Below, in pieces: positions 2 through 51,789 of a DNA stretch of 64,000 bases. Source of the DNA: Candidatus Woesearchaeota archaeon (lineage in GTDB: Archaea; Nanobdellota; Nanobdellia; SCGC-AAA011-G17; JACPIM01). The notes beneath the pieces were generated by a model. The model saw only the letters and a list, made by a program, of their open reading frames with translations, was not told the origin of the DNA and searched no databases. The translations under genes and the position numbers were made by a program. Position 1 is the first letter of the stretch. Every line of letters starts with the position of its first letter. The DNA lies in assembly GCA_964513145.1 (NCBI GenBank), contig CAZELK010000006.1, positions 2,051 through 66,050 on the forward strand. The letters are read 5' to 3'.

Positions 2-577
2 AAAATTGGAATTAAAAAGTTCTTAGATGAACAGCAATTTCAAAATAAAATTGAAGAGAAGAGACATGTTTCCCATTCTTACTACATAATTGGATTTAAA
101 ACAATAACAATAGACAATAATGAAAGTTATGCTTTAGATTTAATAAGCGCTATTTTAGGTTATGGCCAGAGTTCAAGATTATTTAATGAAATTAGAACAA
201 AAAGGGGTTTATCTTATAATACTGGTGCAATACATGAATGCAATAAAAATTATGGATATTTTGCTGCTTATGTGAGCACAGAACATAAAAATGTCAAACT
301 ATGCAGAGAATTAATATTAAAAGAATTTAAACTTAAAAGTTTAACTGAAAAAGAAGTTGAAGATGCAAAAATTTTTTTAGAGGGAACAATTTTATTAAGA
401 AATGAAGACACCAAAGAACTGGCTGTTTCTTTAGGACACTGGGAATATTATAAAAATGATGCCAAACAGTTCTATGAGTATATTAAAAAAATCAAAAAAG
501 TTTCAAAAGAAGATATTTTAAGAATTTCTAAAAAATATTTCACTGGAAAATATACTGAAATATTACTTCATAATTAA
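2..577 (+). CDS. Peptidase M16 (insulinase-like) family protein, C-terminal part; 5' end lies outside the window
   Basis: Open frame from position 2 with no stop before 575-577. Contains the M16 C-terminal-domain motif ...GYGQSSRLFNEIRTKRGLSYNTGA... (compare LGGGMSSRLFQELREKRGLAYSV). The ORF track shows only the Met-initiated tail 272..577. Confidence 0.6.
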   Translation, partial: KIGIKKFLDEQQFQNKIEEKRHVSHSYYIIGFKTITIDNNESYALDLISAILGYGQSSRLFNEIRTKRGLSYNTGAIHECNKNYGYFAAYVSTEHKNVKLCRELILKEFKLKSLTEKEVEDAKIFLEGTILLRNEDTKELAVSLGHWEYYKNDAKQFYEYIKKIKKVSKEDILRISKKYFTGKYTEILLHN

Positions 578-900
578 GTTTGTTTTTTATAAACAAGTTC
601 CCTAATTGGTGTGTTAAATTCTGCCTCAAAAAAAGCCTTATCTACTATCTTCTGGTATGATATTTTATTATCATAAAGAACAATTTGAGAACCTGAAGCA
701 AACAAAACAAGATTTCTACTATTGTATCCAGTCAAGAAATCCCTAGACTCCAAATCATTAGCACCAGGCTCAAAAGATATTATTTCACCTTTTGCAAAAT
801 GCTTTGAAGCTTCTAATGAAACTTTTAATCTGACTTCTAAAGGCATATTTGTCATTTTAAGGAGTATATCTAACCATAGTTCTTGGAAAAGCGATTGCAT
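574..900 (-). CDS. hypothetical protein (108 aa)
   Basis: ORF in the track. Convergent with the M16 gene (4-nt stop overlap) and overlaps the asnS 3' end by 44 nt. No recognisable motif. Confidence 0.3.
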   Translation of the reverse strand: MQSLFQELWLDILLKMTNMPLEVRLKVSLEASKHFAKGEIISFEPGANDLESRDFLTGYNSRNLVLFASGSQIVLYDNKISYQKIVDKAFFEAEFNTPIRELVYKKQT

Positions 901-2149
901 CTTTAATATTATCTAATTTGCAAACCCAAGCAATAATTCTTTCTACACCCATACCAAAACCAGAATGAGGTATAGAACCATATTTTCTTAAATCCAAGTA
1001 CCAAGTATAATTTTTTGGGTTTTCTCCCTGCTGTTTTAACCTTGATTCTATTTTTTCTGGATCTGTTTCTCTTTCAGATCCGCCTATTACCTCGCCATAA
1101 CCTTCTGGAGCCAGACAATCAAAACCAAGAACTGTTTTTGGATTTTTTTCATCTTCCTTCATATAAAAGGCTTTAATTTCCTTTGGGTATTTTGTAACAA
1201 AAATTGGGGTATCAAATAAAGCAACGATTTTTTCTTCTTCTATTGTTCTTAGATCTTTGCCCCATTTTACTTTCATATTTTGTTTTTTATCTAATAATTC
1301 CAGGGCTTCATCATAAGTTATTCTTGGGAATTTCTTTTCCAAAGTTGGCTTTAATTTTTCAATATTCCTTTCCAACACTTTTAATTCTTCAATATTCTTT
1401 TCCAGAACTGTTTTTACTATGTGTTTAATCAAGCCTTCAGCAAGATCCATTAAATCAGTAAAATGCAACCATGCAGCTTCAACTTCAGCATGCCAATATT
1501 CTGTTAAATGCCTTGAAGTTTTTGATCTTTCTGCCCTGAATGACGGGGCTATGCAATAAATTCTCTCGAGTGAAAATATTACTGCTTCTGCATACAATTG
1601 CCAAGACTGAGTCAGGTACATTGGCTTTCCAAAATAATCAACTTTAAACAATGTTGAGCCGCCTTCACAAGCATTTGGAGTAAATGATGGACTTTGATGT
1701 TCAAAATAATTATTTTTTCTAAAATATTCATGTATTGATCCAAATACTGTGCTTCTTATTTTTAATATCGCATTTAGTCTTCTTGACCTTAACCACAAAT
1801 GCCTGTTATCTAAAAGTAGTTCTTCGCTTTGATCTTTATTAATCGGAAAAACATCTGCAAAACCAACTACATTTAATTTTGATACCTGAATTTCATAACC
1901 AGTTACAGCCCTTTTATCTTCTTTTATTTCACCTTCAATTTCAACTGAACTTTCAATCAACAATTTGTTTGCGTCAGCCCATTCTTTTTCTGAAACATTG
2001 TCTTTTTTTACAACTGTTTGAATTATGTTAGATGAATCTCTTATTATCAAAAAAACAAGATCTTTCTGTTTTCTTTCCCTATAAACCCAACCACGGATAT
2101 TTACTGAGCCTTTTTTATTTTCAAGTGCTTCTTTAATAGATATAAACAT
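857..2149 (-). CDS. asnS: Asparaginyl-tRNA synthetase (class IIb)
   Basis: 430 aa. Motif 2 is FRAERSKTSRHLTEYWHAEVEAAW (AsnRS-type RHLxEFW..E.E). Motif 3 is GFGMGVERIIAWVCKLDNIKDAIAFPRT. Has an N-terminal OB anticodon-binding domain. Confidence 0.85.
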   Translation of the reverse strand: MFISIKEALENKKGSVNIRGWVYRERKQKDLVFLIIRDSSNIIQTVVKKDNVSEKEWADANKLLIESSVEIEGEIKEDKRAVTGYEIQVSKLNVVGFADVFPINKDQSEELLLDNRHLWLRSRRLNAILKIRSTVFGSIHEYFRKNNYFEHQSPSFTPNACEGGSTLFKVDYFGKPMYLTQSWQLYAEAVIFSLERIYCIAPSFRAERSKTSRHLTEYWHAEVEAAWLHFTDLMDLAEGLIKHIVKTVLEKNIEELKVLERNIEKLKPTLEKKFPRITYDEALELLDKKQNMKVKWGKDLRTIEEEKIVALFDTPIFVTKYPKEIKAFYMKEDEKNPKTVLGFDCLAPEGYGEVIGGSERETDPEKIESRLKQQGENPKNYTWYLDLRKYGSIPHSGFGMGVERIIAWVCKLDNIKDAIAFPRTMVRYTP

Positions 2150-2181
2150 AGAAATTATTCCTTATTTTAAGTTTAAAAATA

Positions 2182-2586
2182 TTACTTAAATTTTTCAGGC
2201 ACAAAAGCAGCCAGATAATTAGAATTAGTCGAGATTGCATTATTACTAATATGGTCAATATCAAATTTACCTGAACTCCTTTTTGAGTTTTTTTCAGCAT
2301 ATACCAAGTTATCATCAGACTCCAGAATAAGATCAATAGCCAATTGAGAATGCTCTTCTAAAAATGAAAGCTCGTAAAAATCAAATTTTTGGTGTCTTGA
2401 TTTCTTATTTTCTAATGCTGGAAGAATTTTTTTTCTGGTTATTTTTACCTCTTCAGGAAGATTAGAATATGAAAATGTTATGTTGCCATTTTCATCAGCA
2501 ATTACTCTTTCTCCCAAAAGCCTGTAAATACTTTTTCCAAATAATTCTAATTTTATTGTAACTGCCTCTAAAGTAGCTGTTTGCAT
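2182..2586 (-). CDS. hypothetical protein (134 aa), immediately upstream of asnS on the same strand
   Basis: ORF in the track, co-directional with and 33 nt upstream of asnS. No confident family assignment. Confidence 0.45.
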   Translation of the reverse strand: MQTATLEAVTIKLELFGKSIYRLLGERVIADENGNITFSYSNLPEEVKITRKKILPALENKKSRHQKFDFYELSFLEEHSQLAIDLILESDDNLVYAEKNSKRSSGKFDIDHISNNAISTNSNYLAAFVPEKFK

Positions 2587-2620
2587 ATAAAGTTACTAAA
2601 ATCCGAGTTTTTATAGTTAT

Positions 2621-3085
2621 TTATTCAATAAAGTCTTCAATAACTGGGCTAACCAGCTCTAAAAAGTCTATTGTCAACATGATAATGCTTTTTGTCATTA
2701 AACCAGCATTAAATGCTATTTCTTTATTTTTTAACAAAGATTTATCCACAAAGGTTTTTATTTTGAATATATTTCCAAATGGTGGAACTTCACCAGGAAC
2801 ACAATTTGTGACTTTAATTACTTCTTCTTTTGTAGCCAGACTTAGACTTTTTTTATTGATAATTAATCTTAATTTTTTTAGATCTATTTTTTCATTACCA
2901 GGCAAGACACATAAAATAAATTCCCCTTCAGATCTCAAGATTATTGCTTTAGCCCCCTGATCTTCTGTAGTTCCACGAACCCTAGCAGAATCTTTGGATG
3001 TCGGTGTAGGCTCATGATCTAATAATTTATAGCTTATATTTTTAGAGTTTAAAATTTGTTTTATTTCATTAAAAACTGGTTCCAT
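2621..3085 (-). CDS. YbaK/ProX-type aminoacyl-tRNA deacylase (trans-editing domain)
   Basis: 154 aa. Shows the YbaK/EbsC-like pattern (..GAKAIILRSEG.., ..PGEVPPFG..). Confidence 0.65.
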   Translation of the reverse strand: MEPVFNEIKQILNSKNISYKLLDHEPTPTSKDSARVRGTTEDQGAKAIILRSEGEFILCVLPGNEKIDLKKLRLIINKKSLSLATKEEVIKVTNCVPGEVPPFGNIFKIKTFVDKSLLKNKEIAFNAGLMTKSIIMLTIDFLELVSPVIEDFIE

Positions 3086-3143
3086 TTCAAAAAAATTTAA
3101 AACTAGGAAACTTTATAAATATATTTTAGGGAAGAAATATTAA

Positions 3144-3245
3144 GCCCGGGTAGCTCAGACTTTTCCTATATTTAGGAATTGGAGCAACAGGTAGAGCGCA
3201 TGGCTGTTAACCATGAAGTCGGTGGTTCGAGTCCTCCCCTGGGCG
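3144..3245 (+). tRNA. tRNA-Asn (anticodon GTT) with a ~29-nt intron in the D-loop
   Basis: Acceptor stem GCCCGGG/CCTGGGC. D stem GCTC...GAGC is interrupted by ttttcctatatttaggaattggagcaaca. Anticodon arm CATGG-CTGTTAA-CCATG, anticodon GTT. T arm GGTGG-TTCGAGT-CCTCC. Mature length is ~73 nt. Confidence 0.7.
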
Positions 3246-3302
3246 TTTCTCTTAACTGTGATTTATGGCTGTAAAATTTAGAATTTATTAAACATTATGA
3301 TA

Positions 3303-4250
3303 TTATTTGGAATTCTTATTTAACTTATAAACTTTATAGAAACTTACAAGACCTATGATAATCAATATAGTTGCAATTAATATTATATCATTTTGCCTTA
3401 TCCTATAATTAAATATTGTTATGTCAAATATTAAGAATTCAGAAATTAATTTAATTGTCTTTCTTGGAACAAATTCATAAAAACTACCTAAACCCAATGA
3501 TATAATGCCTAATATTAACCATAAAACTTTATTTATTTTTGGGTTGCTATAATTTTCTAGTTTATATGTAATAATAAAATAATAGATAATATTTGAAATT
3601 ATAAAAGCTGAAACAGCGTGAATTAAATCACTTGAAAATAAAAATATCACGATTGCTGCAATTAAACCAAATATAAGACCAGAATATCTCTTTTTAAAAA
3701 ATATAAGACTTATAAGTGATGCAATTACAAAGGCTAAAATTGATGGCGTAATTAAATTAAAAGTCATTAATGCTGCGGCTTCTTCCTCACCAATTCCTTG
3801 CAACTTAAATCTTGATATAATAAAAATTGCATCTAAGGCTAGAGAAGCAAAACTAGCTAAAATAACAAAACTTATTTTCTTTAACCACTCCTCGGCTTTA
3901 ACCAATTTTAAAGCAGAAAAATATGCTATTAACATGAAAAACGAATGCATGAAAAAGAACCAAAACTGTTCATCAACACGAAATAATTCCCTGTTAATAG
4001 TTGGGTTTGCAAATAAATAATAAATATAAAAAATAAATGGGCCAGAAATGCTTGTTACTATTCCTTCTTCTTTTCCTTTGCCTATAAATTGCGCTATTAA
4101 AAATACTGTTAGAAATATAAGTGTTAATTTTATTGCAACATAATTAAGATGAACAGCCCAATCAGTTGCCAAATGATAAGCAATGTCTAAACCATTCATA
4201 ACCAGAGTTATTAATATAGAAAAAATAATGTTTGAATATAATTTATTCAT
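3303..4250 (-). CDS. polytopic integral membrane protein, function unknown
   Basis: 315 aa, roughly 9 hydrophobic segments. No catalytic motif recognised. Confidence 0.55.
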   Translation of the reverse strand: MNKLYSNIIFSILITLVMNGLDIAYHLATDWAVHLNYVAIKLTLIFLTVFLIAQFIGKGKEEGIVTSISGPFIFYIYYLFANPTINRELFRVDEQFWFFFMHSFFMLIAYFSALKLVKAEEWLKKISFVILASFASLALDAIFIISRFKLQGIGEEEAAALMTFNLITPSILAFVIASLISLIFFKKRYSGLIFGLIAAIVIFLFSSDLIHAVSAFIISNIIYYFIITYKLENYSNPKINKVLWLILGIISLGLGSFYEFVPRKTIKLISEFLIFDITIFNYRIRQNDIILIATILIIIGLVSFYKVYKLNKNSK

Positions 4251-4251
4251 T

Positions 4252-4656
4252 TTACTCTATAATTATTGAGCCTTTCATTGATGTGTGAATACCACATATA
4301 TAATCTACTTTACCTGGCTTGTCAAATGTAAAAGAAACAGTATCTCCTGTTTGTAGTTCATCTGATGTTAATGAGCCATCCACAGATTCAACTGTATGAG
4401 TTGCGCTGTCTTCATTTCTCCATGTAACTGTTGTACCTGGCTTAATACGAAGCTCATTTGGCACAAATTTAAAACCTTTTATTATAACTTGCGCATTATC
4501 TCCACCAGCACTTACTCCTTTTGTGTCGCCTTTTTTCTCGACATCAACTGGCTGAGAAATTTGCTCTTGAGTATTTGGTTGATCAGAACTTTTGCAGCCA
4601 GATATTAAGATGGCTGACACTAAGAGAATAATTAAAACTAAAAATATCTTTTTCAT
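4252..4656 (-). CDS. Blue-copper (cupredoxin, plastocyanin/amicyanin-like) lipoprotein
   Basis: Signal peptide plus lipobox LISGC. Type-1 Cu ligands H (SATHTVE) and C-x2-H-x2-M (YICGIHTSMKG). Confidence 0.75.
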   Translation of the reverse strand: MKKIFLVLIILLVSAILISGCKSSDQPNTQEQISQPVDVEKKGDTKGVSAGGDNAQVIIKGFKFVPNELRIKPGTTVTWRNEDSATHTVESVDGSLTSDELQTGDTVSFTFDKPGKVDYICGIHTSMKGSIIIE

Positions 4657-4691
4657 AAATGACTTTTTATATTTTAAATATATAAATCTTT

Positions 4692-5054
4692 TTAATTTTG
4701 GCTTTGACGCAATTCAACTTTATATTCCAAGACTTCGCCAAAATCGCGGCCCTTTAAAATATTAATCTTTTCTACAGCTTCTCTTGAATTTCTTTTTCTC
4801 TGTTCTACAAAAGACTCAAAAATAAGCCTGTCTCTTCCAGATAAATTTGAAAATAACCCCCTATTTATATAATCCAAGAATGATAAGTATGCTGCATTAA
4901 TTGGTGTTAAACCTGGCTGGGCAACAATATTAGTTGAATATAAAACTATTTCTGAACCGTTTATATCTGCACAGATGTGTGTATTATATACTTCTGTTTC
5001 TGCAAGAGAAACTTCTATTTTTGCCTCAAACTTTTGCGTCTTTGGTTTTGCCAT
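4692..5054 (-). CDS. hypothetical protein (120 aa)
   Basis: ORF in the track, no overlaps. No recognised motif. Confidence 0.5.
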   Translation of the reverse strand: MAKPKTQKFEAKIEVSLAETEVYNTHICADINGSEIVLYSTNIVAQPGLTPINAAYLSFLDYINRGLFSNLSGRDRLIFESFVEQRKRNSREAVEKINILKGRDFGEVLEYKVELRQSQN

Positions 5055-5254
5055 AAAATAACCAAATGCAATAGTTTTTTATATCTATCCCTTTAAATTA
5101 TTACAATTATTGTACCTTTCATTTCTTGGTGAATACTGCAATGATAATAATATTTTCCTAGCTTATAAAAATAGTTTAATATAAAAAAATAAGCAGTCTT
5201 AATTGATACAACTTAAACAAAGTTTTTTTATAGTGCTAATTTATACTTAATATT

Positions 5255-5995
5255 ATGTTTGTAAATAATATAGATCCAGTATTATTTAAAATCGGATTTT
5301 TTGAAATAAGATATTATGGATTAGTTTATCTTCTTGGATTTTTACTTGTTTTTTACACTTTAAAGAAAAATAAAAAGGAATTAAATTTAACTGATGATAA
5401 TATTTATGATTTACTTTTATATTTATTCTTTGGCGTTATTTTTGGTGCGAGATTATTTTATTTTATTTTTGATGAGCCCTTTACATTAATTAATGAACCA
5501 TTAGAATTTTTTAAAATATGGCATGGGGGCATGAGTTTTTTTGGCAGCTTAATCGGAGTCTTATTATCCGGGTTTTTTTACTGCAAAAGAAAGCAAATTG
5601 ATTTTTTTAAACTTGGCGATTATTTAGTTATTCCAACCACGATTGCCTTAATTTTTGGCAGAATTGCAAATTTTATTAACGGGGAAATTGTCGGCACAGT
5701 TACAAATTTACCTTGGTGTGTCTTGTTTGAAGGTTATTCTGACTGCAGGCACCCTTATCAAATTTATGCTTCTTTTTCCCATTTTATTTTATTGTTAATT
5801 TTATTTAGAACTAGAAAAATAAAAACTAAAAACGGAGTTTTGTTAATTAACTTTATTATTTTTTATTCTGTTTTAAGAGTTATCACTGATTTCTTTAGAG
5901 ATGAGCCAAAATTTTTTGGCTTAACAATATGGCAGTTATTTAGCATAGTATTTGCAATAATTGGTTTAATAGTTTATAAGAGAATCAAAAAATAA
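5255..5995 (+). CDS. lgt: Prolipoprotein diacylglyceryl transferase (bacterial-type Lgt)
   Basis: 246 aa, multi-TM. Lgt signature GRIANFINGEIVG (compare GRIGNFINGEL) plus the conserved H/W/Y pattern. Lipobox proteins occur elsewhere in the window. Confidence 0.7.
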   Translation: MFVNNIDPVLFKIGFFEIRYYGLVYLLGFLLVFYTLKKNKKELNLTDDNIYDLLLYLFFGVIFGARLFYFIFDEPFTLINEPLEFFKIWHGGMSFFGSLIGVLLSGFFYCKRKQIDFFKLGDYLVIPTTIALIFGRIANFINGEIVGTVTNLPWCVLFEGYSDCRHPYQIYASFSHFILLLILFRTRKIKTKNGVLLINFIIFYSVLRVITDFFRDEPKFFGLTIWQLFSIVFAIIGLIVYKRIKK

Positions 5996-6266
5996 AATTC
6001 TGAACCCTGACTAAAGACTCTAAAAGACCGACTTTATCTGAACCTAGTTCATCTACAGCTTGCTCTGATATGGTTAATGAATAAAATATACACTTACAGC
6101 GATTTTCTTGAAAAATTTTGTTTATTTCTCTTTTTAATTCTTCATAAGAGATGTGGATAGTAAGGGCTTTACTTGCTTCTCTACTCTCGCCTTTAATAAG
6201 ACCAGTGATTTTTCCCAATGTATAATTAGTTCTTGGTTCATAATCAATTTTAAGTTCCATTGTCAT
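5985..6266 (-). CDS. hypothetical protein (93 aa)
   Basis: ORF in the track. Divergent from gatC with a shared promoter region. Confidence 0.4.
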   Translation of the reverse strand: MTMELKIDYEPRTNYTLGKITGLIKGESREASKALTIHISYEELKREINKIFQENRCKCIFYSLTISEQAVDELGSDKVGLLESLVRVQNFIF

Positions 6267-6349
6267 GCTAATCCGATTTATGGCTTATTTATATTATTTT
6301 CTGTTTAGGATAAGATTTTAATACCCCTTGCAATTAATTTAAAACTAAT

Positions 6350-6634
6350 ATGAAGATCGATAGAGAGCTTATAGAAAAAGTAGCCAAAATATCCAGATTA
6401 AATTTAAAAGACGAAGAGAAAGAACAATTTATTAAAGATTTTAAAGACATAATTGATACTCTCTCCAAATTAAACAAAATTAATACTGACAATGTTGAGT
6501 TAAGTGTCCAACCTGTTAGAGTTGAAAATGTTTTTCGAGAAGATAATATAGAAAAAAGTTTAGATGAAAAAGAAATATTTCTAAATGCCAAGCACAAAGA
6601 AAAAGGATTTTTTAAAGGACCAAAGATTTTATGA
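6350..6634 (+). CDS. gatC: Asp/Glu-tRNA amidotransferase subunit C
   Basis: 94 aa. First gene of gatC-gatA-gatB, overlapping gatA by 4 nt. Typical GatC N-terminus (..VAKISRLNLKDEEKEQF..). Confidence 0.75.
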   Translation: MKIDRELIEKVAKISRLNLKDEEKEQFIKDFKDIIDTLSKLNKINTDNVELSVQPVRVENVFREDNIEKSLDEKEIFLNAKHKEKGFFKGPKIL

Positions 6635-7953
6635 AAACTGAAGAAGCTATAAATGAAGCAAGAGAATTAAATAAAAAATATAATTTCTTTATTACAATTA
6701 ATGAGAATCTTTTTAATGAAAAAGCTTTGCCAAAAAATGAAACTAAGATTATTTCTGTTAAAGATAATATTTGCACAAAGGGATTAAGAACAACAGCGGG
6801 ATCTAAAATTTTAGAAGATTATTATCCTGTTTTTGATGCGACTGTAATTGAACTGGCAGGGAAAAAAGGATATTCTATAATTGGAAAAACTAGCATGGAT
6901 GAGTTTGGTTTTGGAAGTTTTTCTACAAATTGCGCTTATGAAATACCAAAAAACCCCTTGGATGAAACTAAAACTTGTGGGGGTAGTTCTGGTGGCGGGG
7001 CTGGTTATACTTATGCCAGCAAATTTAGTGCTGCTTCTATAGCTGAAAGCACTGGGGGGAGCATATCTTGTCCAGCTGCATTTTGCAGTGTTGTTGGGAT
7101 TACACCAACATACGGGTTAATTTCCAGACATGGATTAATTGATTATGCCAATTCCCTAGATAAAATTGGTGTTTTTGGCAAATCTGTAAATGATAGTGTC
7201 AGACTATTAAATTCTATTTCTGGTTTTGATGAAAAAGACAGTACCTCTATTAATAAGGAAAAAGAAAATTATGAAAATTATCTTGGAAAAGATTGCAAAA
7301 AATTAAAAATAGGAATTATAAAAGAATTTTGTTCTGGATTAAATAAAAATGTTGAAAAAGAATTTTGGAATGGGGTGAAAAAGTTAGAGGACAACGGCAT
7401 AAAAACCAAAGAAGTTTCTTTTAAATCCAGTGATTTGTGTTTAAGCACTTATTATATTATAGCAATGTGTGAAGCGTCTACAAATTTAGCTAAATATTGC
7501 GGCATAAGATATGGCATGAGCAAAGAATTGAAAGGAACTTTTAATGAATATTTTTCTTCAATAAGAGAAGAATTTTTAGGAAAAGAAGCCAAGAGAAGAA
7601 TTTTATTAGGCACTTTTATGAGGATGGCTGGATATAGGGAAGCTTATTATATTAAGGCTTTAAAATTAAGAACTTTGATTACGCAGGAATTTAAAAAATT
7701 ATTCAAAGAATTTGATGTTTTGTTAACTCCAACAATGCCAATATTACCACCAAAGTTTTCGGATATAAAAAAATTAACTCCTTTAGAAAATTATATGAGT
7801 GATGTTTTAACTGTTGGACCGAATTTGTGCGGTTTCCCAATGATTTCAGTACCTGTATTAAAAAATAAACCAGTTGGTTTGCATTTTATTGCAGATCATT
7901 TGCAGGAAAATAAAATAATAAGCATTGGAGATTTTTATGAAAGAGTCAGATAA
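6631..7953 (+). CDS. gatA: Asp/Glu-tRNA amidotransferase subunit A (amidase signature family)
   Basis: 440 aa. Amidase signature GGSSGGGAG and Ser-cisSer-Lys context. Confidence 0.9.
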   Translation: MKTEEAINEARELNKKYNFFITINENLFNEKALPKNETKIISVKDNICTKGLRTTAGSKILEDYYPVFDATVIELAGKKGYSIIGKTSMDEFGFGSFSTNCAYEIPKNPLDETKTCGGSSGGGAGYTYASKFSAASIAESTGGSISCPAAFCSVVGITPTYGLISRHGLIDYANSLDKIGVFGKSVNDSVRLLNSISGFDEKDSTSINKEKENYENYLGKDCKKLKIGIIKEFCSGLNKNVEKEFWNGVKKLEDNGIKTKEVSFKSSDLCLSTYYIIAMCEASTNLAKYCGIRYGMSKELKGTFNEYFSSIREEFLGKEAKRRILLGTFMRMAGYREAYYIKALKLRTLITQEFKKLFKEFDVLLTPTMPILPPKFSDIKKLTPLENYMSDVLTVGPNLCGFPMISVPVLKNKPVGLHFIADHLQENKIISIGDFYERVR

Positions 7954-9328
7954 TGCTAAAATAGGCTTAGAAATTCATTTGCAATTATATTTAAAGAGCA
8001 AGCTATTTTGCGGATGTTCGAGTGATTCCAGCAAACCCAATTCATCCTTATGTCCACTTTGTTTGGGACATCCTGGAAGCAAGCCAGTAATCAATAACAA
8101 AGCAATTGAATTAGGAATTAAATTGGGATTGGCTTTAAATTGTACAATAAATAAAGAAAATTACTTTTCAAGAAAAACTTATTTTTACCCAGACATGAGC
8201 AAAAATTATCAAATAACACAATATGAATATCCTTTATGCATAAATGGACATGTCAGATTTAAAGATAAAATAATCAGAATAAAGAGAATTCATTTGGAAG
8301 AGGATCCGGCTTCTATACAATATCCAAAAACTATTTCTGATTCTGAATATTGCTTAATTGATTATAACAGATCTGGGGTTGCTTTATGTGAAATTGTTAC
8401 AGAACCTGATTTAACTTCTGCTCAAGAAGCCAGGGAATTTCTAGAACAATTAGCAACTATAATTGATTACCTAGAAATTTATGACTCTAAAAAATTTACA
8501 ACAAGGGTTGATGCTAATGTTTCATTGCCAGGAACAAAAAGGGTTGAGATAAAAAATATTACTGGATTTAAAGCTGTAGAAAAGGCAATCGGGTTTGAAA
8601 TTTTAAGGCAGAAAGGCAAATTAAGAAGAAATGAAGAATTTAAACAAGAAACAATGCATTATGATTCTTTTAGCAATAAAGTAATCCCATTAAGAGAAAA
8701 AGAATTTGAAGAAGATTATGGATATATTTTTGATCCTGACTTGCCGAAGATTGTTGTTGAAGAAAAATTAATCAAAAAAATTAAAGAAACTATACCAGAA
8801 CTACCAACTGAGAAAATTGAAAGATTAATTGAAAAATATAAAATTAGTGCAAATACAGCCAGTATTCTGGCTTCTGAAAGAGAAATTTGCGACTTGTTCG
8901 AAGAAAGTGTTAAAAAAATTGACAAAGAACTAGCTATAAATTTTATTACAGTTACATTAAAGAAAGTCCTTAATTATAATAATTTGAAATTAAAAGACAG
9001 CAAATTGACTTTGGATAATTTTATTAATTTATTAAAATTAATTGGAAAAAAAGATTTAACATCAAGGATGGGTGATTTATTGCTGAGAAGACTTGTTTTG
9101 AGCAATAAAAATACTGATGAATTAATTAAAGAACTAGGTTTTAAAAAAATAGAGAATTTTGACAAGGCTGTTGATACTATATTGATCAAAAATAAAAAAT
9201 CTGTTGAAGATTATAAAATGGGAAATTCCAAGGCTTTACATTTCTTAATCGGACAAATTTTAAGGGAATTAAAAGACAAAGCAGACCCAAAAAGCATTGA
9301 GAAAAAAATATTAGAAAAAATAAAATAA
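7925..9328 (+). CDS. gatB: Asp/Glu-tRNA amidotransferase subunit B
   Basis: 467 aa. N-terminal GLEIHLQL...KLFCGC. GatB-type cradle (..DYNRSGVALCEIVTEPD..). C-terminal YqeY-like tail. The start could instead be the internal Met at 7937. Confidence 0.85.
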   Translation: MEIFMKESDNAKIGLEIHLQLYLKSKLFCGCSSDSSKPNSSLCPLCLGHPGSKPVINNKAIELGIKLGLALNCTINKENYFSRKTYFYPDMSKNYQITQYEYPLCINGHVRFKDKIIRIKRIHLEEDPASIQYPKTISDSEYCLIDYNRSGVALCEIVTEPDLTSAQEAREFLEQLATIIDYLEIYDSKKFTTRVDANVSLPGTKRVEIKNITGFKAVEKAIGFEILRQKGKLRRNEEFKQETMHYDSFSNKVIPLREKEFEEDYGYIFDPDLPKIVVEEKLIKKIKETIPELPTEKIERLIEKYKISANTASILASEREICDLFEESVKKIDKELAINFITVTLKKVLNYNNLKLKDSKLTLDNFINLLKLIGKKDLTSRMGDLLLRRLVLSNKNTDELIKELGFKKIENFDKAVDTILIKNKKSVEDYKMGNSKALHFLIGQILRELKDKADPKSIEKKILEKIK

Positions 9329-9331
9329 AAA

Positions 9332-9550
9332 TTACCTTCGTTTAGAAGGTTTTTCCATACCCATACATGCCTGACATTCTGGGCAGTGGCACATTGCTAC
9401 TGATCCGAATCCAATTAGCAAAAATAAAACTGACCACCACTGGATATTCCAAAAAGTCCATACATTAAGGTCTTTTAATAAAAATAAGACACCAACAACT
9501 AAAAATAGAACACCACATAGCTTTCTACATTTTTTACATCCCATCATCAT
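9332..9550 (-). CDS. small membrane protein with Cys cluster (72 aa), hypothetical
   Basis: Two TM helices plus the motif CHCPECQAC. Confidence 0.35.
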   Translation of the reverse strand: MMMGCKKCRKLCGVLFLVVGVLFLLKDLNVWTFWNIQWWSVLFLLIGFGSVAMCHCPECQACMGMEKPSKRR

Positions 9551-9568
9551 TTTACATATCCTCCTTTT

Positions 9569-10099
9569 TTAAATTATACTAGCTTTTTTTATTACTACAT
9601 CAGTTAAAGGTTTATCGCTTGTGTCTCTTTTTGCATTACTTATTTTGTCAACAACATCCATACCTTCAACTACTTTACCGAATACTGGATGTTTTGCATC
9701 TAAGAAATTATTATCAACTGTATTTATAAAAAATTGACTGCCACCAGTATTAGGACCTGCATTTGCCATTGATATAGTACCACGATTATTTTTATTATTT
9801 TTTGTAAATTCATCCTTTATTACATACCCTGGACCGCCTCTTCCTGTTCCAGTTGGATCACCGCCCTGAATCATGAAGTTCGGAATAACCCTATGAAAAA
9901 TAACTCCGTCATAGAATTTTGAATTAACTAATTTTTTGAAATTATCAGATGTAATTGGCATTGTATTTTCAAATAATTCTATCTTTATATTACCAACAGA
10001 TGTTTCCAATAATACTATGCTGTTCATTTTATTTTCTGTTTTAGGTGTACAACCAGTTATTAAAAATAACATTAATAAGATTACTACCTCTTTCCGCAT
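9569..10099 (-). CDS. Cyclophilin-type peptidyl-prolyl cis-trans isomerase, lipoprotein
   Basis: Cyclophilin motifs (FHRVIPNFMIQGGDP, GTISMANAGPNTGGSQFFI). The likely start is MRKEVVILLMLFLITGC (lipobox LITGC). The track ORF extends 37 codons further upstream to 10210. Confidence 0.8.
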   Translation of the reverse strand: MRKEVVILLMLFLITGCTPKTENKMNSIVLLETSVGNIKIELFENTMPITSDNFKKLVNSKFYDGVIFHRVIPNFMIQGGDPTGTGRGGPGYVIKDEFTKNNKNNRGTISMANAGPNTGGSQFFINTVDNNFLDAKHPVFGKVVEGMDVVDKISNAKRDTSDKPLTDVVIKKASII

Positions 10100-10175
10100 T
10101 TTACTTATAATACTTGTCATATTTATATAACTTTCTAAGTGATAAATTTTTAAATGTAAAATATGTCTTATTATC

Positions 10176-10457
10176 ATGGTTAGATATAAACAAAGATGCA
10201 TGCGCTGCAAAAATAATATGGTTATTGTAACCCAGAATACAAAATTTCCTTTGTGCTACGACTGCCAAAAAGACGAACTGCATAAAGATATAAAAGACCC
10301 CAAAATGAAAAAGATGTTTGAAATACCTGAGGACTTTTATAAAAATAATGCGTTTTTAAGATCAATAAAAATCAATTACATCAGATTTGGAAAATTATCA
10401 GACAAACAAATAGAATGGTTTAATAAAACTGTAGATGGATTGAAGAAAGATAAATAA
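10176..10457 (+). CDS. zinc-ribbon protein (CxxC...CxxC), hypothetical
   Basis: 93 aa with CMRC...CYDC. Confidence 0.4.
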   Translation: MVRYKQRCMRCKNNMVIVTQNTKFPLCYDCQKDELHKDIKDPKMKKMFEIPEDFYKNNAFLRSIKINYIRFGKLSDKQIEWFNKTVDGLKKDK

Positions 10458-10467
10458 TATTGAAACA

Positions 10468-11778
10468 TTACGGTGTTAATCTTTCTGGATCGCGGGGGAG
10501 CAATATTGCTTCACGTACATTTTCCAGATTTAACATTCTCTGGATTAACCTGTCAAAACCAATACCTGCTCCGCCATGAGGGGGAGTTCCGTATTTGAAA
10601 ATATTAGCATAAAAAGACATTTTATCTAGATCTATTCCCTTTTCTTTAGACTGCTCTTTTAAAATATTATAATTATTTTCTCTTTGTGAGCCTGAAGAAA
10701 TTTCTACACCTTTGTAAACTAAATCAAATGATTTTGTAACTTTTTTATTTAAACTTGAACGCATTTGATAAAATGGTTTTTTCTCCCAAGGATATAGTGT
10801 AATAAAAACCATATCTGAATCATATTTTTCTTTTATTATCTCGCCAATTAATTTTTCGCCCTCTGAATCTAAATCTTCATTTTCTTTTAATTTTTTTCCT
10901 TTTTTCTCTATTAGTTTTTTTGCTTCTTCCAATGTAATTCTTGGGACTTGTTTTGGAATATCAATTTTTACATTTAACAAATCTAATTCTTCTTTGCATT
11001 TTTCTTTTACACTTGCCAGAACAAATTTCATTAACTCCTCAAGAACATCCATAACGTCGTTTTCATCTTTAATAAAACCCATTTCAATATCTATACCAGT
11101 AAATTCTGTTAAATGCCTTGTTGTATGGGATTTTTCTGCCCTGAAAACTTCACCAATCTCATAGACCCTTTCCATGCCTGAAACTACGAACATCTGCTTG
11201 TAAACTTGCGGACTTTGTGTTAGGAATGCTTCTTTACCAAAATAATCAATACTAAATTGTTCAGCTCCAGATTCTACACCACCAGCTGTTATTTTTGGAG
11301 TATTAATAGAAATAAATCCTTTTTCCTCGAAAAAATTAGAAACTATATTGAAAACTTTTGATCTTACCTTGAATATTGCTGAAATTTGCGGTCTTCTTAT
11401 ATCCAAAAATCTATAGTCTAATCTTTTATCTATTAATGTTTTTGATTTCTCTGATGTGTCTATAGGCAGAGGAGTTAGTGATTCTGATAAAATTTTTAAA
11501 TCTTCAACTGAAATTTCATAACCTTTTTTTGCTTCTTTGCTTGTCTTTACCTTTCCTTCGATTTCAACAACAGATTCTATTGATATTTTGTGAATTTTAT
11601 TGAACAAATTTTCATTTATATTTTCTTTATGAGAAACACATTGAATTAAACCAGTTTTATCTCTTAATAAAATAAACTGGACTTTACCTAAAGACCTTAT
11701 TTCAGAAACCCATCCTTTTACAAGGACTTTTTTATCATTTAATTTTTCATTTATTTCCGATATAAAAATACGATCCAT
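10468..11778 (-). CDS. aspS: Aspartyl-tRNA synthetase, archaeal type
   Basis: 436 aa. Motifs are FRAEKSHTTRHLTEFTGIDIEMGF and GIGFDRLIQRM...LLPRDPERLTP. N-terminal OB fold. Confidence 0.9.
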   Translation of the reverse strand: MDRIFISEINEKLNDKKVLVKGWVSEIRSLGKVQFILLRDKTGLIQCVSHKENINENLFNKIHKISIESVVEIEGKVKTSKEAKKGYEISVEDLKILSESLTPLPIDTSEKSKTLIDKRLDYRFLDIRRPQISAIFKVRSKVFNIVSNFFEEKGFISINTPKITAGGVESGAEQFSIDYFGKEAFLTQSPQVYKQMFVVSGMERVYEIGEVFRAEKSHTTRHLTEFTGIDIEMGFIKDENDVMDVLEELMKFVLASVKEKCKEELDLLNVKIDIPKQVPRITLEEAKKLIEKKGKKLKENEDLDSEGEKLIGEIIKEKYDSDMVFITLYPWEKKPFYQMRSSLNKKVTKSFDLVYKGVEISSGSQRENNYNILKEQSKEKGIDLDKMSFYANIFKYGTPPHGGAGIGFDRLIQRMLNLENVREAILLPRDPERLTP

Positions 11779-11822
11779 TAAAAATTTGGTGATAACAAGA
11801 ATTTATAACATTTGCGGTTGAA

Positions 11823-12281
11823 TTATGCGCCCTGAGCTATTTCTTTTGACCAGAACTCGTATGCCTCCTTATAAAATTTAAGCCCATTTTTCATTTCTTT
11901 TTCAGCATCCCTAAACTGAATATGGGAGACTCCATAAATTAGATTAGACAGACCATTTCTAAAAAATCTGTCATCTCTTTTTGGGAAATTTAGTTTTATT
12001 TCTTCAGGTATTCCAGAAAATTTGATAATATATTCATTGTCATTTTCGCTTCTTTTTTTATTATCATAAAAACAACATTTATATAATTTTATTAAGTCAT
12101 AAAGAAAAATTACTTTTTGCAGGAAATCCCTTTCCCTTGTTTTAATTTTTAACATTGGACACAAGCATAAGGATTTTCGAAATGCATTGCTTTCCAAAGA
12201 CTTTAAACTCACATTATCTACAAATTCTGAGATTCTTCCTTTATAAAAATTTATTTTAGTTTCTAATGAATTCTCACTCAT
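11823..12281 (-). CDS. hypothetical protein (152 aa)
   Basis: ORF in the track. No recognised motif. Confidence 0.45.
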   Translation of the reverse strand: MSENSLETKINFYKGRISEFVDNVSLKSLESNAFRKSLCLCPMLKIKTRERDFLQKVIFLYDLIKLYKCCFYDNKKRSENDNEYIIKFSGIPEEIKLNFPKRDDRFFRNGLSNLIYGVSHIQFRDAEKEMKNGLKFYKEAYEFWSKEIAQGA

Positions 12282-12455
12282 TTTTAAGTTTTTGAAATGT
12301 TTTACTTATTTAATCTTTTGCTAATGGATTAAAACCTTTTTTATAAAGTTTTGAATTGAGATAAATAATGGCGAAGTCAGTTATTTATATTGAAACATTA
12401 TAAACTTTTTAATCCTGGAAAATATAGTTCAAAGAATTTATTTTTAAGAATTATT

Positions 12456-12848
12456 TTAATATTTAAGAATTCTCAAATTAACTATTCTAGCATAATGAGC
12501 ATCCCCAGTTATAAGCTTTTCATTATTTATTCGAGCAATTGCAGCAATCATTATATCTTCTGTTTCTATTGTTAAACCTTTTTGTATAAGTTCAGCTTCT
12601 ATTTCAGCAGCTTCTTTTGCACTTTTCTCATCTAAATTTAATATCTCTAATGATTGTAAAAGTTCTATTATTTTAGATTTTTCTTTTTCTGATTGACCAG
12701 AGATTAAAGCGCCTGTCCAAAGTTCCATAACTGAAGGAGCTGCGATTGTTAATCTTGTTTCTGTTCTGTCAATTTCTTCTTTTAAAGCTTTTACTATTTC
12801 TTTTCCCTGCAACAAATCAATTATAAAACTTGTTTCTAAGCACGCCAT
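12456..12848 (-). CDS. vapC: PIN-domain ribonuclease (VapC-like toxin)
   Basis: 130 aa. N-terminal LETSFIIDLL carries the PIN acidic residue. A 4-nt-separated upstream partner (12851..13102) is present. Confidence 0.8.
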   Translation of the reverse strand: MACLETSFIIDLLQGKEIVKALKEEIDRTETRLTIAAPSVMELWTGALISGQSEKEKSKIIELLQSLEILNLDEKSAKEAAEIEAELIQKGLTIETEDIMIAAIARINNEKLITGDAHYARIVNLRILKY

Positions 12849-12850
12849 TT

Positions 12851-13102
12851 TTATTTTTCTTTAAATTTGTTAACAATTTGCTTTATTCTTAGTCTATGTG
12901 TTTCATTACGTTTTTTTCTTAATTCGTAAACTGAGTTTTCCAGTTTTCTTCCTTTTTCTTCCGATAAAATACCAAAAAAATTGCTAAGGGGCTTACGTTT
13001 TGAAACTCTAATAATTGTTTCACTAAAACTCTCTCTTGGGGCTTTTAATGATCTAAGGGCTTCATAAGCTTCCTTTGTTACAGTGATAGTTTTTATTGCC
13101 AT
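12851..13102 (-). CDS. VapB-like antitoxin (83 aa)
   Basis: Sits upstream of the PIN gene. Its N-terminus (AIKTITVTKEAYEALRSLK) is paralogous to 36064..36297 (ATKCITVTNEAYERLAHLK). Confidence 0.65.
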   Translation of the reverse strand: MAIKTITVTKEAYEALRSLKAPRESFSETIIRVSKRKPLSNFFGILSEEKGRKLENSVYELRKKRNETHRLRIKQIVNKFKEK

Positions 13103-13154
13103 ATTATGTTTAATAATGTTTAATTATATAAACGTTACTATGTTTAGTTTAGAA

Positions 13155-14579
13155 TTATTTTAATAATTTTTTTAATAAATCAGAAAGTTTTTTTCCGTCA
13201 ATTGAGCCTCTAAATGTTTTCATTGCTTCGCCCATTAAAGCTGAAAATGAAGCTCCTTTATTTTTAATTATTAATTCTTTTAATTTTATTTCTACTTCTT
13301 TTACATTAATTTGTTTATATTTATTTAAATCAATGTGCTTGCCTTGGGCTAAGTCCAATAATATCTCTTTTGCAGCTTCTCTTGTTATTCTTTTTTCTTG
13401 GAGATTTTTAAAAATAAACTCAAAATCTTTTTGTGATAATTTTTCTGGGCTGACATTAAATCTTCTTCTTATTTCTTTTGGATATTCAACCAATAACTCA
13501 GCCATCAAACTTGGATTTAGACAGTATTTTTCAGAATAATAGTCAAAAGGTATGCTTTCTTCCAAAATTTCTCTTGCAAGCTGTTCGTTTATTTTATATT
13601 TTTTCTCGAAATTTATTGCTCTTTCTGTTAGTAATTCTGGTATTTCAATTTGAGACAATAACTCTTTTGTTATTCTTATTAGAACTATATCTGTCTCAAC
13701 ATACATTCTGGAGCCTGTTGGCATTGGTCTTAAAAATGTTGATGTGAAATCCGGCTCAACTTTTCTAACTTCTGCTTTTAATTCTTTTTTATTTTTTATA
13801 TTTTCTAATTGCCTATTTATTTCATTTTCTATTGTTTTTGGAATTCCTCTTAAATCCTGAAAACCTTTTAATTCTACTCTTGGATGGTCTTTAATACTTA
13901 CATTCACATCCTGTCTTATTGAACCCAATCCAGATTTAAATTTTCCTGTTGATTTTAATATCATCCCCAAATATTCAGCAATTTCTTTTGCATGTTCGGG
14001 ATCTTTTATACTTGAATCTGTTGCTATTTCTATTAATGGAATTCCTAGTCTGTCTAAATTATAAATAACTGATTTTTCATCTTGTTTTATTTTTTTAGCC
14101 GCTTCTTCTTCTAAACAAATTGTGGGAATTTTTACTTCCCCTTTTGAAGTTTTTATAGAACCATTAATTGCGATTAAAGTAGTTCTTTGGAAACCAGAAA
14201 TATTAGAACCGTCAACTATAACCTTTCTCATTATTTGAATTTCATCAATTATTTTTGCATTTGTTAAAATAGCAACCTGTAAAGCAACTTTTAGTGCTTC
14301 TTTATTTAATTTTTCGGGCGGGGATTCGTCCAAATCAACTAAACAAGTTGTGTCTTTATTAATTTCATATATAAAGATTTTATCTTTTTGTGTTTCATAT
14401 AAAGCAGCTATATCTATTCCCCCTAATTCTCCGGCAGAAGCTTTTAATTTTCTTTTAATTGTATGGTCTACTTTTTCTGTATTTGTCAAAGAAGGACATT
14501 CACAAAATAATTTATGAGTTTCAATCTGCCTGTGAATTTCTAGACCAATACGTAAACCTAATTCTTTATAATTTAGCAT
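13155..14579 (-). CDS. gatE: Glu-tRNA(Gln) amidotransferase subunit E, compact form
   Basis: 474 aa. GLEIHRQI..KLFCEC and the GatE-specific VDGSNISGFQRTTLIAINGSI. It is ~150 aa shorter than typical GatE (~620 aa); the AspRS-like insertion domain appears absent or reduced. Confidence 0.75.
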   Translation of the reverse strand: MLNYKELGLRIGLEIHRQIETHKLFCECPSLTNTEKVDHTIKRKLKASAGELGGIDIAALYETQKDKIFIYEINKDTTCLVDLDESPPEKLNKEALKVALQVAILTNAKIIDEIQIMRKVIVDGSNISGFQRTTLIAINGSIKTSKGEVKIPTICLEEEAAKKIKQDEKSVIYNLDRLGIPLIEIATDSSIKDPEHAKEIAEYLGMILKSTGKFKSGLGSIRQDVNVSIKDHPRVELKGFQDLRGIPKTIENEINRQLENIKNKKELKAEVRKVEPDFTSTFLRPMPTGSRMYVETDIVLIRITKELLSQIEIPELLTERAINFEKKYKINEQLAREILEESIPFDYYSEKYCLNPSLMAELLVEYPKEIRRRFNVSPEKLSQKDFEFIFKNLQEKRITREAAKEILLDLAQGKHIDLNKYKQINVKEVEIKLKELIIKNKGASFSALMGEAMKTFRGSIDGKKLSDLLKKLLK

Positions 14580-15054
14580 TTTTTACTTTATTACTTAATC
14601 TATCCCATTTCATAGTATCTTTTTCAAAAAAAGATAATGCTTTTACTAAGTTCTTTTTATTTAAAGATTTTGATATGCAAATCCATCGACCATAATTATC
14701 TAATTTTATTTTTTTCATTGGTAATAGTTTAGATAATATCTCATGACATCCCCTGATTATTTTTTTACTTTTACACGAAACTTGTATATTTCTTGTTTTT
14801 CTAAGTACATGCCCTTCAAAAGTCATAAAGCCACATAAAAAGGCAATTCGAAATTTTAAATTTGAATTTTTAATCAATTTTGGTTCTGTTACAGTATACG
14901 TTTTCTCACCTAAAGGAAAGCCCAAAAATTTATTTAAGTATCTAACAACAATTTTATTATCTAAATCAATTCTAAAGGCTTTCTTTTTCTTACATTTCTT
15001 TAATTTCGATTTTATTCCAAATATATGAAAAATCCAACCTTGAAGTTTTAGCAT
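14566..15054 (-). CDS. LAGLIDADG-like (single-motif) homing-endonuclease-like protein
   Basis: 162 aa, very basic. Carries RIAFLCGFMTFEGHV, which resembles LAGFIDGDG. Confidence 0.4.
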   Translation of the reverse strand: MLKLQGWIFHIFGIKSKLKKCKKKKAFRIDLDNKIVVRYLNKFLGFPLGEKTYTVTEPKLIKNSNLKFRIAFLCGFMTFEGHVLRKTRNIQVSCKSKKIIRGCHEILSKLLPMKKIKLDNYGRWICISKSLNKKNLVKALSFFEKDTMKWDRLSNKVKNAKL

Positions 15055-15164
15055 TGAACTCTCATACGCTTCTGTAATATTTATAGCGTTGGATATTGTT
15101 AAAGTAATTTGTTTATTTTCTCTAAATTTATATAGTTCTTTAGGAATAATTGATATTGTATTTT

Positions 15165-15722
15165 TTAGTGTGTATTTTTTAGTCTAATTCTTAAAGCCTT
15201 TTTTGTTTTAAATATTTTAAATTCGTAATTATTATTTTTTAAAATTTTAATTAAATCTTCTTTAATTTTTGAATCTTTAATTTCTATTCCTATCCTATTA
15301 CATATATTGCCGTCTGCTGCATGCGCTCCACAAATTTTCGCTAGATCTATATTAATAGTTTTAACAGCTTTTATTGGTTTCGACTTATTACTATTACATT
15401 TAATATATTCAACATTTTCATTTATTAAATTAAAGTATTTGGGAGCTTTACATAAGGATATGACCATTTCAAATAAGGGAATTGGAATCCATTCGCGATC
15501 ATTATAAATTATTTCTTCAATTGGTCCTAAACTACATTTTAATCTATTCTTAATAATTCTAGATAACTCCTTCTTTGATAATTGCTTTTCTTCTATTATT
15601 TGGTTGAATAAACCCATAAAACTCTTTCTTAAATTCTTTCCCTTAAAACAAATCCAACTTTTTGGCGAGATATCTACTTTTTTATCATGAAGTTTAAATA
15701 AATCAAATTTATTTTTAGACAT
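15165..15722 (-). CDS. LAGLIDADG-like (single-motif) homing-endonuclease-like protein
   Basis: 185 aa with LAKICGAHAADGNI. Adjacent to and co-directional with 14566..15054. Confidence 0.4.
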   Translation of the reverse strand: MSKNKFDLFKLHDKKVDISPKSWICFKGKNLRKSFMGLFNQIIEEKQLSKKELSRIIKNRLKCSLGPIEEIIYNDREWIPIPLFEMVISLCKAPKYFNLINENVEYIKCNSNKSKPIKAVKTINIDLAKICGAHAADGNICNRIGIEIKDSKIKEDLIKILKNNNYEFKIFKTKKALRIRLKNTH

Positions 15723-15944
15723 TTAATAATGGTAGGTAAGTTATTATATAAACTGCAGGCTGGTCTTTGTCTTGTCTAGTAGTTTTGTCCTGTTGTTAAA
15801 ATGTTGTTATAAGCCTTATAAATCAATTTTAGTCCGAAAGATTTTTGGTTGTCTTGTATTAATTTTCGGAGAAGTCGGAAATTTTACGAAATTAATAGTT
15901 CTAGAACACAAATCTTTTTATATTAATCTTATCACGAATAATTT

Positions 15945-16235
15945 ATGGGTGGGGGTACAGGTGATTGCGAACTTGGAGATTCTGAGTTAAAGGAAGTTTA
16001 TAGTTTAGAATTTTTAACAACTATTGATGGGGAAGAATTTACAAGGAAGCAAATTGGCTTTTCAAAGGAGAAGTTTGTTGTTTTAAATGTACATGGCTCC
16101 AGATGTGAACATAAAGAGGTTCAAATAGGTCCTGATTTATATGCTTTATTTAAGGAACAAGCTTTAAAAGGAAGTTATAGGTCTGCAAAAGAGTTTTGTG
16201 CAGGCTTAGAAAAATCTCCTGAGAAAATTTATTAA
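15945..16235 (+). CDS. hypothetical protein (96 aa)
   Basis: ORF in the track. Convergent with gatD (stop overlap). Confidence 0.35.
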   Translation: MGGGTGDCELGDSELKEVYSLEFLTTIDGEEFTRKQIGFSKEKFVVLNVHGSRCEHKEVQIGPDLYALFKEQALKGSYRSAKEFCAGLEKSPEKIY

Positions 16236-51762: not shown

Positions 51763-51789
51763 TTTTTTAAACAAAATATTTTTGTATGC

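Follow-up and report, generated by a model that had tools for sequence, protein, structure and literature searches.

A 64,000-nt stretch of archaeal DNA (hereafter the window) carries a gene for tRNA-Asn(GUU) of a Woesearchaeota-like DPANN archaeon that is, with little doubt, functional and interrupted by a single 29-nt intron, which would be spliced out by an endonuclease between tRNA positions 15 and 16; the cleavage, the ligation and the enzyme are steps that I infer. A preliminary description of this DNA had proposed a tRNA-Asn with a D-loop intron. The exon blocks, ARAGORN on the spliced sequence, the archaeal homologues and an intronless gene all bear this out, and the insert length and the GUU anticodon given there were likewise correct.

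The gene occupies 3144-3245 of the forward strand (Table 1), and its exon blocks read GCCCGGG UA GCUC AG... on one side of the 29-nt insert and ...GGUA GAGC G CAUGG CUGUUAA CCAUG AAGUC GGUGG UUCGAGU CCUCC CCUGGGC G on the other; CCA is not encoded. Anticodon GUU and discriminator G73 are identity elements of tRNA-Asn. The exons are collinear and contiguous, which distinguishes the gene from split and permuted tRNA genes. ARAGORN does not find this tRNA-Asn in the unspliced window DNA, even with its intron option (-i), which covers anticodon-loop introns only, and calls just a tRNA-Thr elsewhere. Once the 29 nt are deleted it calls a 73-nt tRNA-Asn(gtt), so that the ARAGORN check suggested earlier failed on the unspliced DNA and succeeded on the spliced sequence. 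The Rfam tRNA model covers only 3188-3241 (30.2 bits, against a gathering score of 29), and a permissive Rfam scan of the window for more disrupted tRNAs returned nothing beyond the known tRNA-Thr and this tRNA-Asn half-match. The spliced cloverleaf is standard but not "perfect", as it had been called: its T-stem has a mismatch, U51.U63, and G5.U68 is a wobble pair, both of which are also present in intronless relatives. The acceptor stem shows a compensatory change, with G7-C66 in the window versus A7-U66 in three related loci (L028, L045, L087). ARAGORN accepts all three possible deletion registers as a 73-nt tRNA-Asn, and thus the cloverleaf alone cannot place the junction.

Table 1. Coordinates of the tRNA-Asn gene, its intron and associated features (positions in the window unless a metagenome contig is named).
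Feature	Position	Strand	Remarks
Exon 1	3144..3158	+	tRNA positions 1-15: acceptor 5' strand GCCCGGG, U8 A9, D-stem 5' strand GCUC, A14 G15
Exon 1 end	3158	+	junction set by BHB geometry and the intronless allele
BHB-type intron, 29 nt	3159..3187	+	predicted at tRNA position 15/16
Exon 2	3188..3245	+	tRNA positions 16-73, starts C16 A17 G18 G19 U20 A21
Exon 2, D-stem 3' strand GAGC	3194-3197	+	tRNA positions 22-25
Anticodon GUU	3206-3208	+	in the anticodon arm of exon 2
Discriminator G73	3245	+	last base of exon 2, after T-arm and acceptor 3' strand
Central BHB helix H, exon strand GCUC	3153..3156	+	tRNA positions 10-13; minimum-energy fold and ensemble
Central BHB helix H, intron strand GAGC	3182..3185	+	mimic of the D-stem 3' strand; pairs with 3153-3156
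5' bulge A G / A	3157..3159	+	predicted cut after G3158; flanked by H and the intron helix
Intron helix h	3160..3181	+	closing pair C3160-G3181, tandem U.U, six base pairs, UAUU loop
3' bulge A A / C	3186..3188	+	predicted cut after A3187; no outer helix h'
CTTTATAAAT box	3111..3120	+	24-33 nt upstream of the tRNA 5' end
T-rich tract TTTCTCTT	3246..3253	+	read from the sequence; follows the discriminator
AsnRS gene (asnS)	857..2149	-	NCBIfam NF003037, 515.6 bits vs cutoff 414
ORF without annotation	2182-2586		between AsnRS and tRNA-Asn
YbaK-like deacylase	2621-3085		between AsnRS and tRNA-Asn
GatC, GatA, GatB	6350-9328
Non-discriminating AspRS	10468-11778		NF003483 at 578 bits
GatE	13155-14579	-
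GatD	16232-17515
Intronless tRNA-Asn in L129	about 45-120	-	metagenome contig
Intronless tRNA-Asn in L134	about 750-822	-	metagenome contig

The archaeal bulge-helix-bulge (BHB) consists of a 4-bp helix between 3-nt bulges that hold the cut sites (PMC7714728; PMC3239211). In the minimum-energy fold of the precursor, the D-stem strand GCUC of exon 1 pairs with the intronic GAGC to form the central helix H, leaving AGA as a 3-nt bulge. The pairs of H have a probability of 0.94-0.96 in the precursor ensemble, against 0.013 for pairing with the true D-stem partner, and the conformer that combines the BHB with the cloverleaf (-33.9 kcal/mol) is favoured over that with the mature D-stem (-30.7 kcal/mol). 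Within the intron, helix h comprises the closing pair C3160-G3181, whose probability in the ensemble is only 0.44, a tandem U.U (3161-3162 / 3179-3180) and six pairs (3163-3168 / 3173-3178). The minimum-energy fold also pairs AACAG in the 3' splice-site region (3186-3190) with CUGUU of the anticodon loop (3204-3208), replacing the anticodon stem, and its energy lies 1.8 kcal/mol below that of the BHB-plus-cloverleaf conformer. This pairing is probably an artefact of the folding model; the complementarity would survive, with a wobble, in relatives whose corresponding sequence ends in AAUAG.

An outer helix h' closing the 3' bulge was looked for in the window and in the wider family of homologous introns, and was neither present nor conserved. 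A17 faces A9 in the window, and a pair between position 17 and A9 would be possible in 15% of family members only (52 distinct inserts, among the matches listed). Helix h is present and h' absent, so this is not the strict hBHBh' (3-4-3) motif but one of the relaxed hBH or bulge-helix-loop (BHL) class, which according to published work needs a broad-specificity EndA (PMC5829648; PMC3239211). In other respects the element has the features of a BHB intron: a 4-bp helix between exon and intron with the splice sites in the flanking bulges on opposite strands, predicted cuts two nucleotides after each strand of H that give the correct mature sequence, exons that join into a standard cloverleaf, and compensatory changes that keep the helices across homologues. 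The fold, the geometry of the family, the covariation and the cut rule agree with the earlier proposal of a BHB-type intron at a non-canonical D-loop position in an archaeon, and folding the junctions, as had been recommended, did reveal the GCUC/GAGC helix and its bulges, albeit in the relaxed form.

The position of the cuts can be read by comparison with canonical introns. In the canonical 37/38 layout the exon strand of H is formed by positions 32-35, the 5' bulge by 36, 37 and the first intron nucleotide, and the 3' bulge by the last two intron nucleotides and nucleotide 38. Across 32 canonical 37/38 introns from the same loci as the D-loop introns, the strand pairing with C32-U35 sits exactly 2 nt before the 3' splice site: at this offset all four pairs form in 25/32 and at least three in 30/32, and no other offset ever reaches four. 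Whether the cut follows the second or the third bulge nucleotide cannot be read from the canonical introns on their own, since A stands both at the first intron position and at nucleotide 38. The rule of cleavage after the second bulge nucleotide comes partly from the 37/38 convention and from known biochemistry.

It is the intronless alleles that settle the matter. In a scan of metagenomes I identified two contigs, L129 and L134, whose tRNA-Asn gene has no intron, matches the exons of the window at 100% identity (including T-stem GGUGG/CCUCC and acceptor GCCCGGG/CCUGGGC) and has a D-loop that reads AGCAGGUA. A cut at 15/16 gives the mature D-loop A14 G15 C16 A17 G18 G19 U20 A21, which is AGCAGGUA, whereas the intermediate register gives AGAAGGUA and 17/18 gives AGACGGUA. 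The intronless D-loop thus puts the cut after the second bulge nucleotide, and the predicted cuts fall at 3158/3159 and 3187/3188, with the intron at 15/16. The preliminary description had placed the junction at 3160/3161 and 3189/3190 (17/18), two bases too far downstream by this comparison. At positions 16-17, further intronless relatives read UU, UC or CA, in agreement with the Y16/W17 that follows the 3' bulge in intron-bearing genes. In L134 a ybaK-like gene lies about 1.3 kb from the tRNA-Asn and is 77% identical (DNA) to that of the window; L134 therefore comes from a related organism and not from the same strain. Taken together, these sequences indicate a polymorphism for presence or absence of the intron against a background of identical exons.

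The D-loop insert is not peculiar to the window. A search with the pattern TAGCTCAG-N12-42-GGTAGAGC-N6-CTGTTAA in one genome per prokaryotic species yielded at least 119 loci, and at least 96 matches (95 archaeal loci and the window) were left after removal of bacterial tandem or partial tRNA duplicates. Archaeal matches listed include MAGs labelled Woese-, Pace-, Nano-, Aenigmat-, Micr- and Iainarchaeota, Nitrososphaerales and Hod-/Heimdallarchaeota. Sequence comparison excludes chance as the origin of the insert: in at least 95 archaeal loci besides the window the tRNA-Asn is interrupted in its D-loop, and there is an intronless gene whose exons are 100% identical.

The window and at least 52 archaeal MAG loci share one layout: GCUC, AG/a, a variable helix, GRGY, aa/Y, W and GGUA. 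Introns of this family are thus widespread among the tRNA-Asn genes of DPANN archaea. The figures that follow refer to 52 distinct inserts among the matches listed. The intron strand of H is GAGC in 42, GGGC in 5, GAGU in 3 and GGGU in 2, all of which can pair with GCUC. At the six helix positions beside the 5' bulge, standard pairs fill 91% of cells, as against 57 +/- 3% (maximum 67%, 1000 shuffles) when partners are shuffled and 47-71% in slid registers, and each position uses 4-6 standard pair types; on this alignment the intron helix shows strong covariation. The last two intron nucleotides are AA in 45/52, the first (the third of the 5' bulge) is A in 48/52, and position 16 is invariably C or U. 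Among the matches listed, the introns are 15 to 40 nt long. The tandem U.U after the closing C-G pair, which the window has, is rare in the family; in two loci (L121 and L128), as in the window, a 2x2 internal loop interrupts the intron helix at pairs 2-3.

Several relatives depart from this simple arrangement. Many tRNA-Asn genes carry a 15/16 intron together with a canonical 37/38 intron (L003, L008, L018-L020, L034, L038, L040, L056, L063, L069, L114, L118 and others), and four (L027, L035, L047, L086) have an apparent further insertion after the variable loop or inside the T-arm. In Nitrososphaerales (L007, L031, L050, L055, L059, L074, L080, L092, L112, L117, L119) tRNA-Asn appears to carry a D-loop intron that reads AG/a ... 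GGGC ag/C GU GGUA; the H strand and 5' bulge match those of the DPANN family, which implies, from the sequence pattern, a 15/16 position and a 9-nt D-loop. In Hod-/Heimdallarchaeota (Asgard; L009, L025, L051, L061, L068, L094) the D-loop insert is out of the 15/16 register and may lie at 17/18. A search for the 15/16 geometry in other isoacceptors, covering about 1 Mb of loci (8-kb pieces centred on tRNA-Asn), gave one spurious match that was not a tRNA and no sign of transposition.

The bacterial matches to the search pattern, discarded as tandem or partial tRNA-Asn duplications, consist of a full tRNA-Asn with a fragment ending in TAGCTCAG 20-40 nt upstream. Ten cyanobacterial loci are of this kind (L005, L006, L015, L029, L082, L091, L105, L106, L108, L115), and the fragment is kept as GTAATCGTAGCTCAG in several MAGs of Okeania and other cyanobacteria. 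It could have arisen by partial duplication of the 5' end of the tRNA, or belong to another tRNA as its end.

Gene content and synteny identify the host of the window as a Woesearchaeota-like DPANN archaeon. The G+C content of the window is 27-31%, and its archaeal genes include those for GatD, GatE, ABCE1/RLI, the primase small subunit, an ATP-dependent DNA ligase, TrmB and an archaeal pilin. Over its first 10 kb the window shows synteny with contigs that belong to MAGs labelled Candidatus Woesearchaeota; AsnRS of L045 is 89% identical to that of the window, and GatC, GatA and GatB of L045 and L087 are 70-84% identical. Upstream of the tRNA gene, the CTTTATAAAT box recurs at a similar distance in about eleven close relatives (L045, L087, L121, L123, L126, L128, L130, L133 and the intronless L129 and L134) and is probably an archaeal BRE/TATA promoter element; the TTTCTCTT tract that follows the discriminator is a probable archaeal transcription stop. 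The gene had been described as next to asnS, but the two are about 1 kb apart, on different strands and with two ORFs between them. Synteny with AsnRS is common to L045, L121, L123 and L130.

Genes for amide aminoacyl-tRNA synthesis cluster at 857-17515, around tRNA-Asn. The genes of the direct (AsnRS) and the indirect (ND-AspRS plus GatCAB) routes to Asn-tRNA neighbour each other here, grouped around the tRNA on which both routes act. AsnRS or GatA/GatB likewise lies within 8 kb of an intron-bearing tRNA-Asn in L077, L084, L107, L114, L118 and L069. GatE has 474 aa, compared with a profile of about 620-630, and matches it in two stretches; by this comparison it seems to be without the central insertion domain. 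An ORF of 162 aa that weakly matches LAGLIDADG_3 (14566-15054, -) overlaps its start and is followed by a 185-aa ORF without a family match (15165-15722, -); the LAGLIDADG_3 region may represent either a homing endonuclease encoded on its own or the remains of an intein.

Elsewhere in the window, two bacterial-type genes are candidates for horizontal transfer into DPANN: a prolipoprotein diacylglyceryl transferase, Lgt (5255-5995, +; TIGR00544 at 158 bits, cutoff 119), and a DusB-type tRNA dihydrouridine synthase (34275-35213, +; TIGR00737 at 308.5 bits, cutoff 293). In an ORF of at least 980 aa (61060-64000, +) that continues beyond the window, a T2SSE-type secretion/pilus ATPase is joined to an intein splicing domain and to a LAGLIDADG homing endonuclease. 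Just past tRNA-Thr (49627-49698), eight ORFs of 148-223 aa without a Pfam match occupy 50287-55716 and are followed by an AbiEii-like fragment (55695-56174); the run of eight is possibly an integrated element, or else an island specific to the lineage.

How would such a precursor be processed? The D-stem strand GCUC would pair with the intronic decoy GAGC and not with its mature partner, creating the 4-bp central helix. The 5' splice site would then lie in the 3-nt bulge AG/A, closed by the intron hairpin, and the 3' splice site two nucleotides past the decoy strand, AA/C, in a region that no helix closes. The archaeal splicing endonuclease EndA would cut both sites and an RtcB-type ligase would join the exons, with ...GCUCAG-CAGGUAGAGC... 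as the predicted join; after ligation GCUC would re-pair with the true GAGC at positions 22-25, and CCA would be added. Genes for EndA, RtcB and the CCA-adding enzyme were not found within the 64-kb window, in which almost all ORFs of at least 100 aa were compared with Pfam or NCBIfam, and so for the enzyme I rely on the literature on DPANN archaea. Narrow-specificity EndAs of the alpha4 and alpha'2 types need the strict 3-4-3 hBHBh', and it is (alpha-beta)2 and epsilon2 EndAs, which have a specific loop, that cut relaxed motifs (PMC3239211; PMC5829648; PMC6379350). Kaneta et al. reported that several DPANN lineages have alpha4-type EndAs bearing an L3 insert, and linked these enzymes to more tRNA gene disruption; they also took the incomplete tRNA sets of DPANN genomes to suggest that disrupted genes go undetected (PMC5829648). 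One Woesearchaeota and one Pacearchaeota genome are among the surveyed DPANN lineages for which L3-loop EndAs and numerous disruptions of tRNA genes are described (PMC5829648). By analogy, the enzyme acting here is probably an EndA with the L3 insert. The earlier remark that such introns characterise certain archaeal lineages fits the same report, in which the host group already features with many disrupted tRNA genes (PMC5829648).

Known systems offer partial parallels. The pre-tRNA-Glu(UUC) of Methanopyrus kandleri also has a short endonuclease-type D-loop intron in a relaxed BHB that is open on one side (PMC5829648); its HBh' motif requires an EndA of broad specificity to be cut well (Kaneta et al. 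2018, PMC5829648). However, M. kandleri is a euryarchaeon and not a DPANN archaeon, the isoacceptor and the junction are different, and its tRNA-Glu has a canonical intron as well, whereas the window gene has a single intron whose open side is the 3' bulge. Closer in host is the hBH/BHL intron at 59/60 in pre-tRNA-Cys(GCA) of ARMAN-2, which is short and relaxed, with one bulge unclosed (PMC3239211), and for which cleavage by an epsilon2-type DPANN EndA was shown experimentally (Fujishima et al. 2011, PMC3239211); that intron, however, is in the T-loop and has 13 nt, as opposed to 29 nt in the D-loop of the window. Thermoproteales and Thaumarchaeota have BHB introns at many positions outside 37/38 (Sugahara et al. 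2008 via PMC4033280; PMC8450103), but these belong to another intron sequence family, and their lineages use an (alpha-beta)2 EndA with the L1/CSL loop. With the canonical 37/38 intron (strict hBHBh') the window intron shares the pairing of four exon nucleotides with an intron strand that stops 2 nt ahead of the 3' cut, as well as bulges of the form NN/a and aa/N; it differs in position and in the outer helix h', a role played by the anticodon stem at 37/38 and without a counterpart in the window. Non-canonical BHB introns, including relaxed D-loop ones, are already well documented in Crenarchaeota, Thaumarchaeota, M. kandleri, N. equitans and ARMAN, and the window intron reveals no new mechanism.

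Could the intron be real but lie at 17/18, with exon 1 ending ...AGAC at 3160 and exon 2 starting GGUA at 3190? ARAGORN accepts the product equally as a 73-nt tRNA-Asn, but the 5' cut would then sit within the covarying intron helix and not in a bulge, the 3' cut would fall 4 nt past the H strand, an offset never valid for the canonical introns of the same loci, and the intronless genes with identical exons, which have the D-loop of the 15/16 product, refute it; I give it next to no credence. No more credible is that the 29 nt are retained as an enlarged D-loop in the mature tRNA, or that they form a self-splicing element akin to group I. Were the insert retained, sequestration of the D-stem strand (p about 0.95) would leave the tRNA with no D-arm and no G18/G19-T-loop geometry. 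As for self-splicing, 29 nt is far below the size of ribozyme introns (more than 200 nt), and no Rfam intron family matches the insert even at E<=1. The BHB geometry, moreover, matches what the canonical endonuclease introns of the same genomes show, which speaks against both versions.

A little more weight, though still not much, can be given to the idea that this is a decaying or insertion-disrupted tRNA-Asn pseudogene and that the cell uses another copy, which could be located elsewhere in the genome, beyond the 64-kb window. The U51.U63 mismatch in the T-stem and the tandem U.U in the intron helix would fit such decay. Yet the same exons, U51.U63 included, are found in intronless genes of relatives whose flanking protein gene is only 77% identical, which argues that the exons are under purifying selection. 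The internal loop of the intron helix likewise has its counterpart in L121 and L128, and since both irregularities recur in relatives (the former in L129 and L134), both seem to be tolerated. The promoter box is conserved, as are the intron geometry and covariation in more than 50 genomes. I therefore hold, with high confidence, that the tRNA-Asn gene of the window is functional, with its intron predicted at 15/16.

A broader reading is that the 15/16 introns of tRNA-Asn make up one widespread and old family, with termini A/C-UUUU... ...G-GAGC-AA/Y, in MAGs labelled Woese-, Pace-, Nano- and Aenigmatarchaeota, that Nitrososphaerales have a similarly placed counterpart, and that the intron is still being gained or lost, because genes with identical exons exist with and without it. 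I regard this as a tentative and rather doubtful generalization. If it were true, the motif without h' would be a natural substrate with which to test the broad specificity of the alpha4-type L3-loop EndAs of DPANN, proposed by Kaneta et al. 2018 from correlation only (PMC5829648).

For the organism itself, the consequence is more immediate. Standard finders of the ARAGORN and Rfam type miss the gene, and the genome would seem to be without tRNA-Asn, which matters for DPANN, where missing tRNAs are often taken as reduced coding capacity. The BHB models of tRNAscan-SE 2.0 were trained on Crenarchaeota/Euryarchaeota and Thaumarchaeota, not on DPANN (PMC8450103). The corrected junction supplies the true sequence of the mature tRNA; more than 50 homologous introns with matched intronless alleles could be used to train tRNA intron models specific to DPANN, and the same set offers natural substrates for studying EndA specificity in DPANN lineages.
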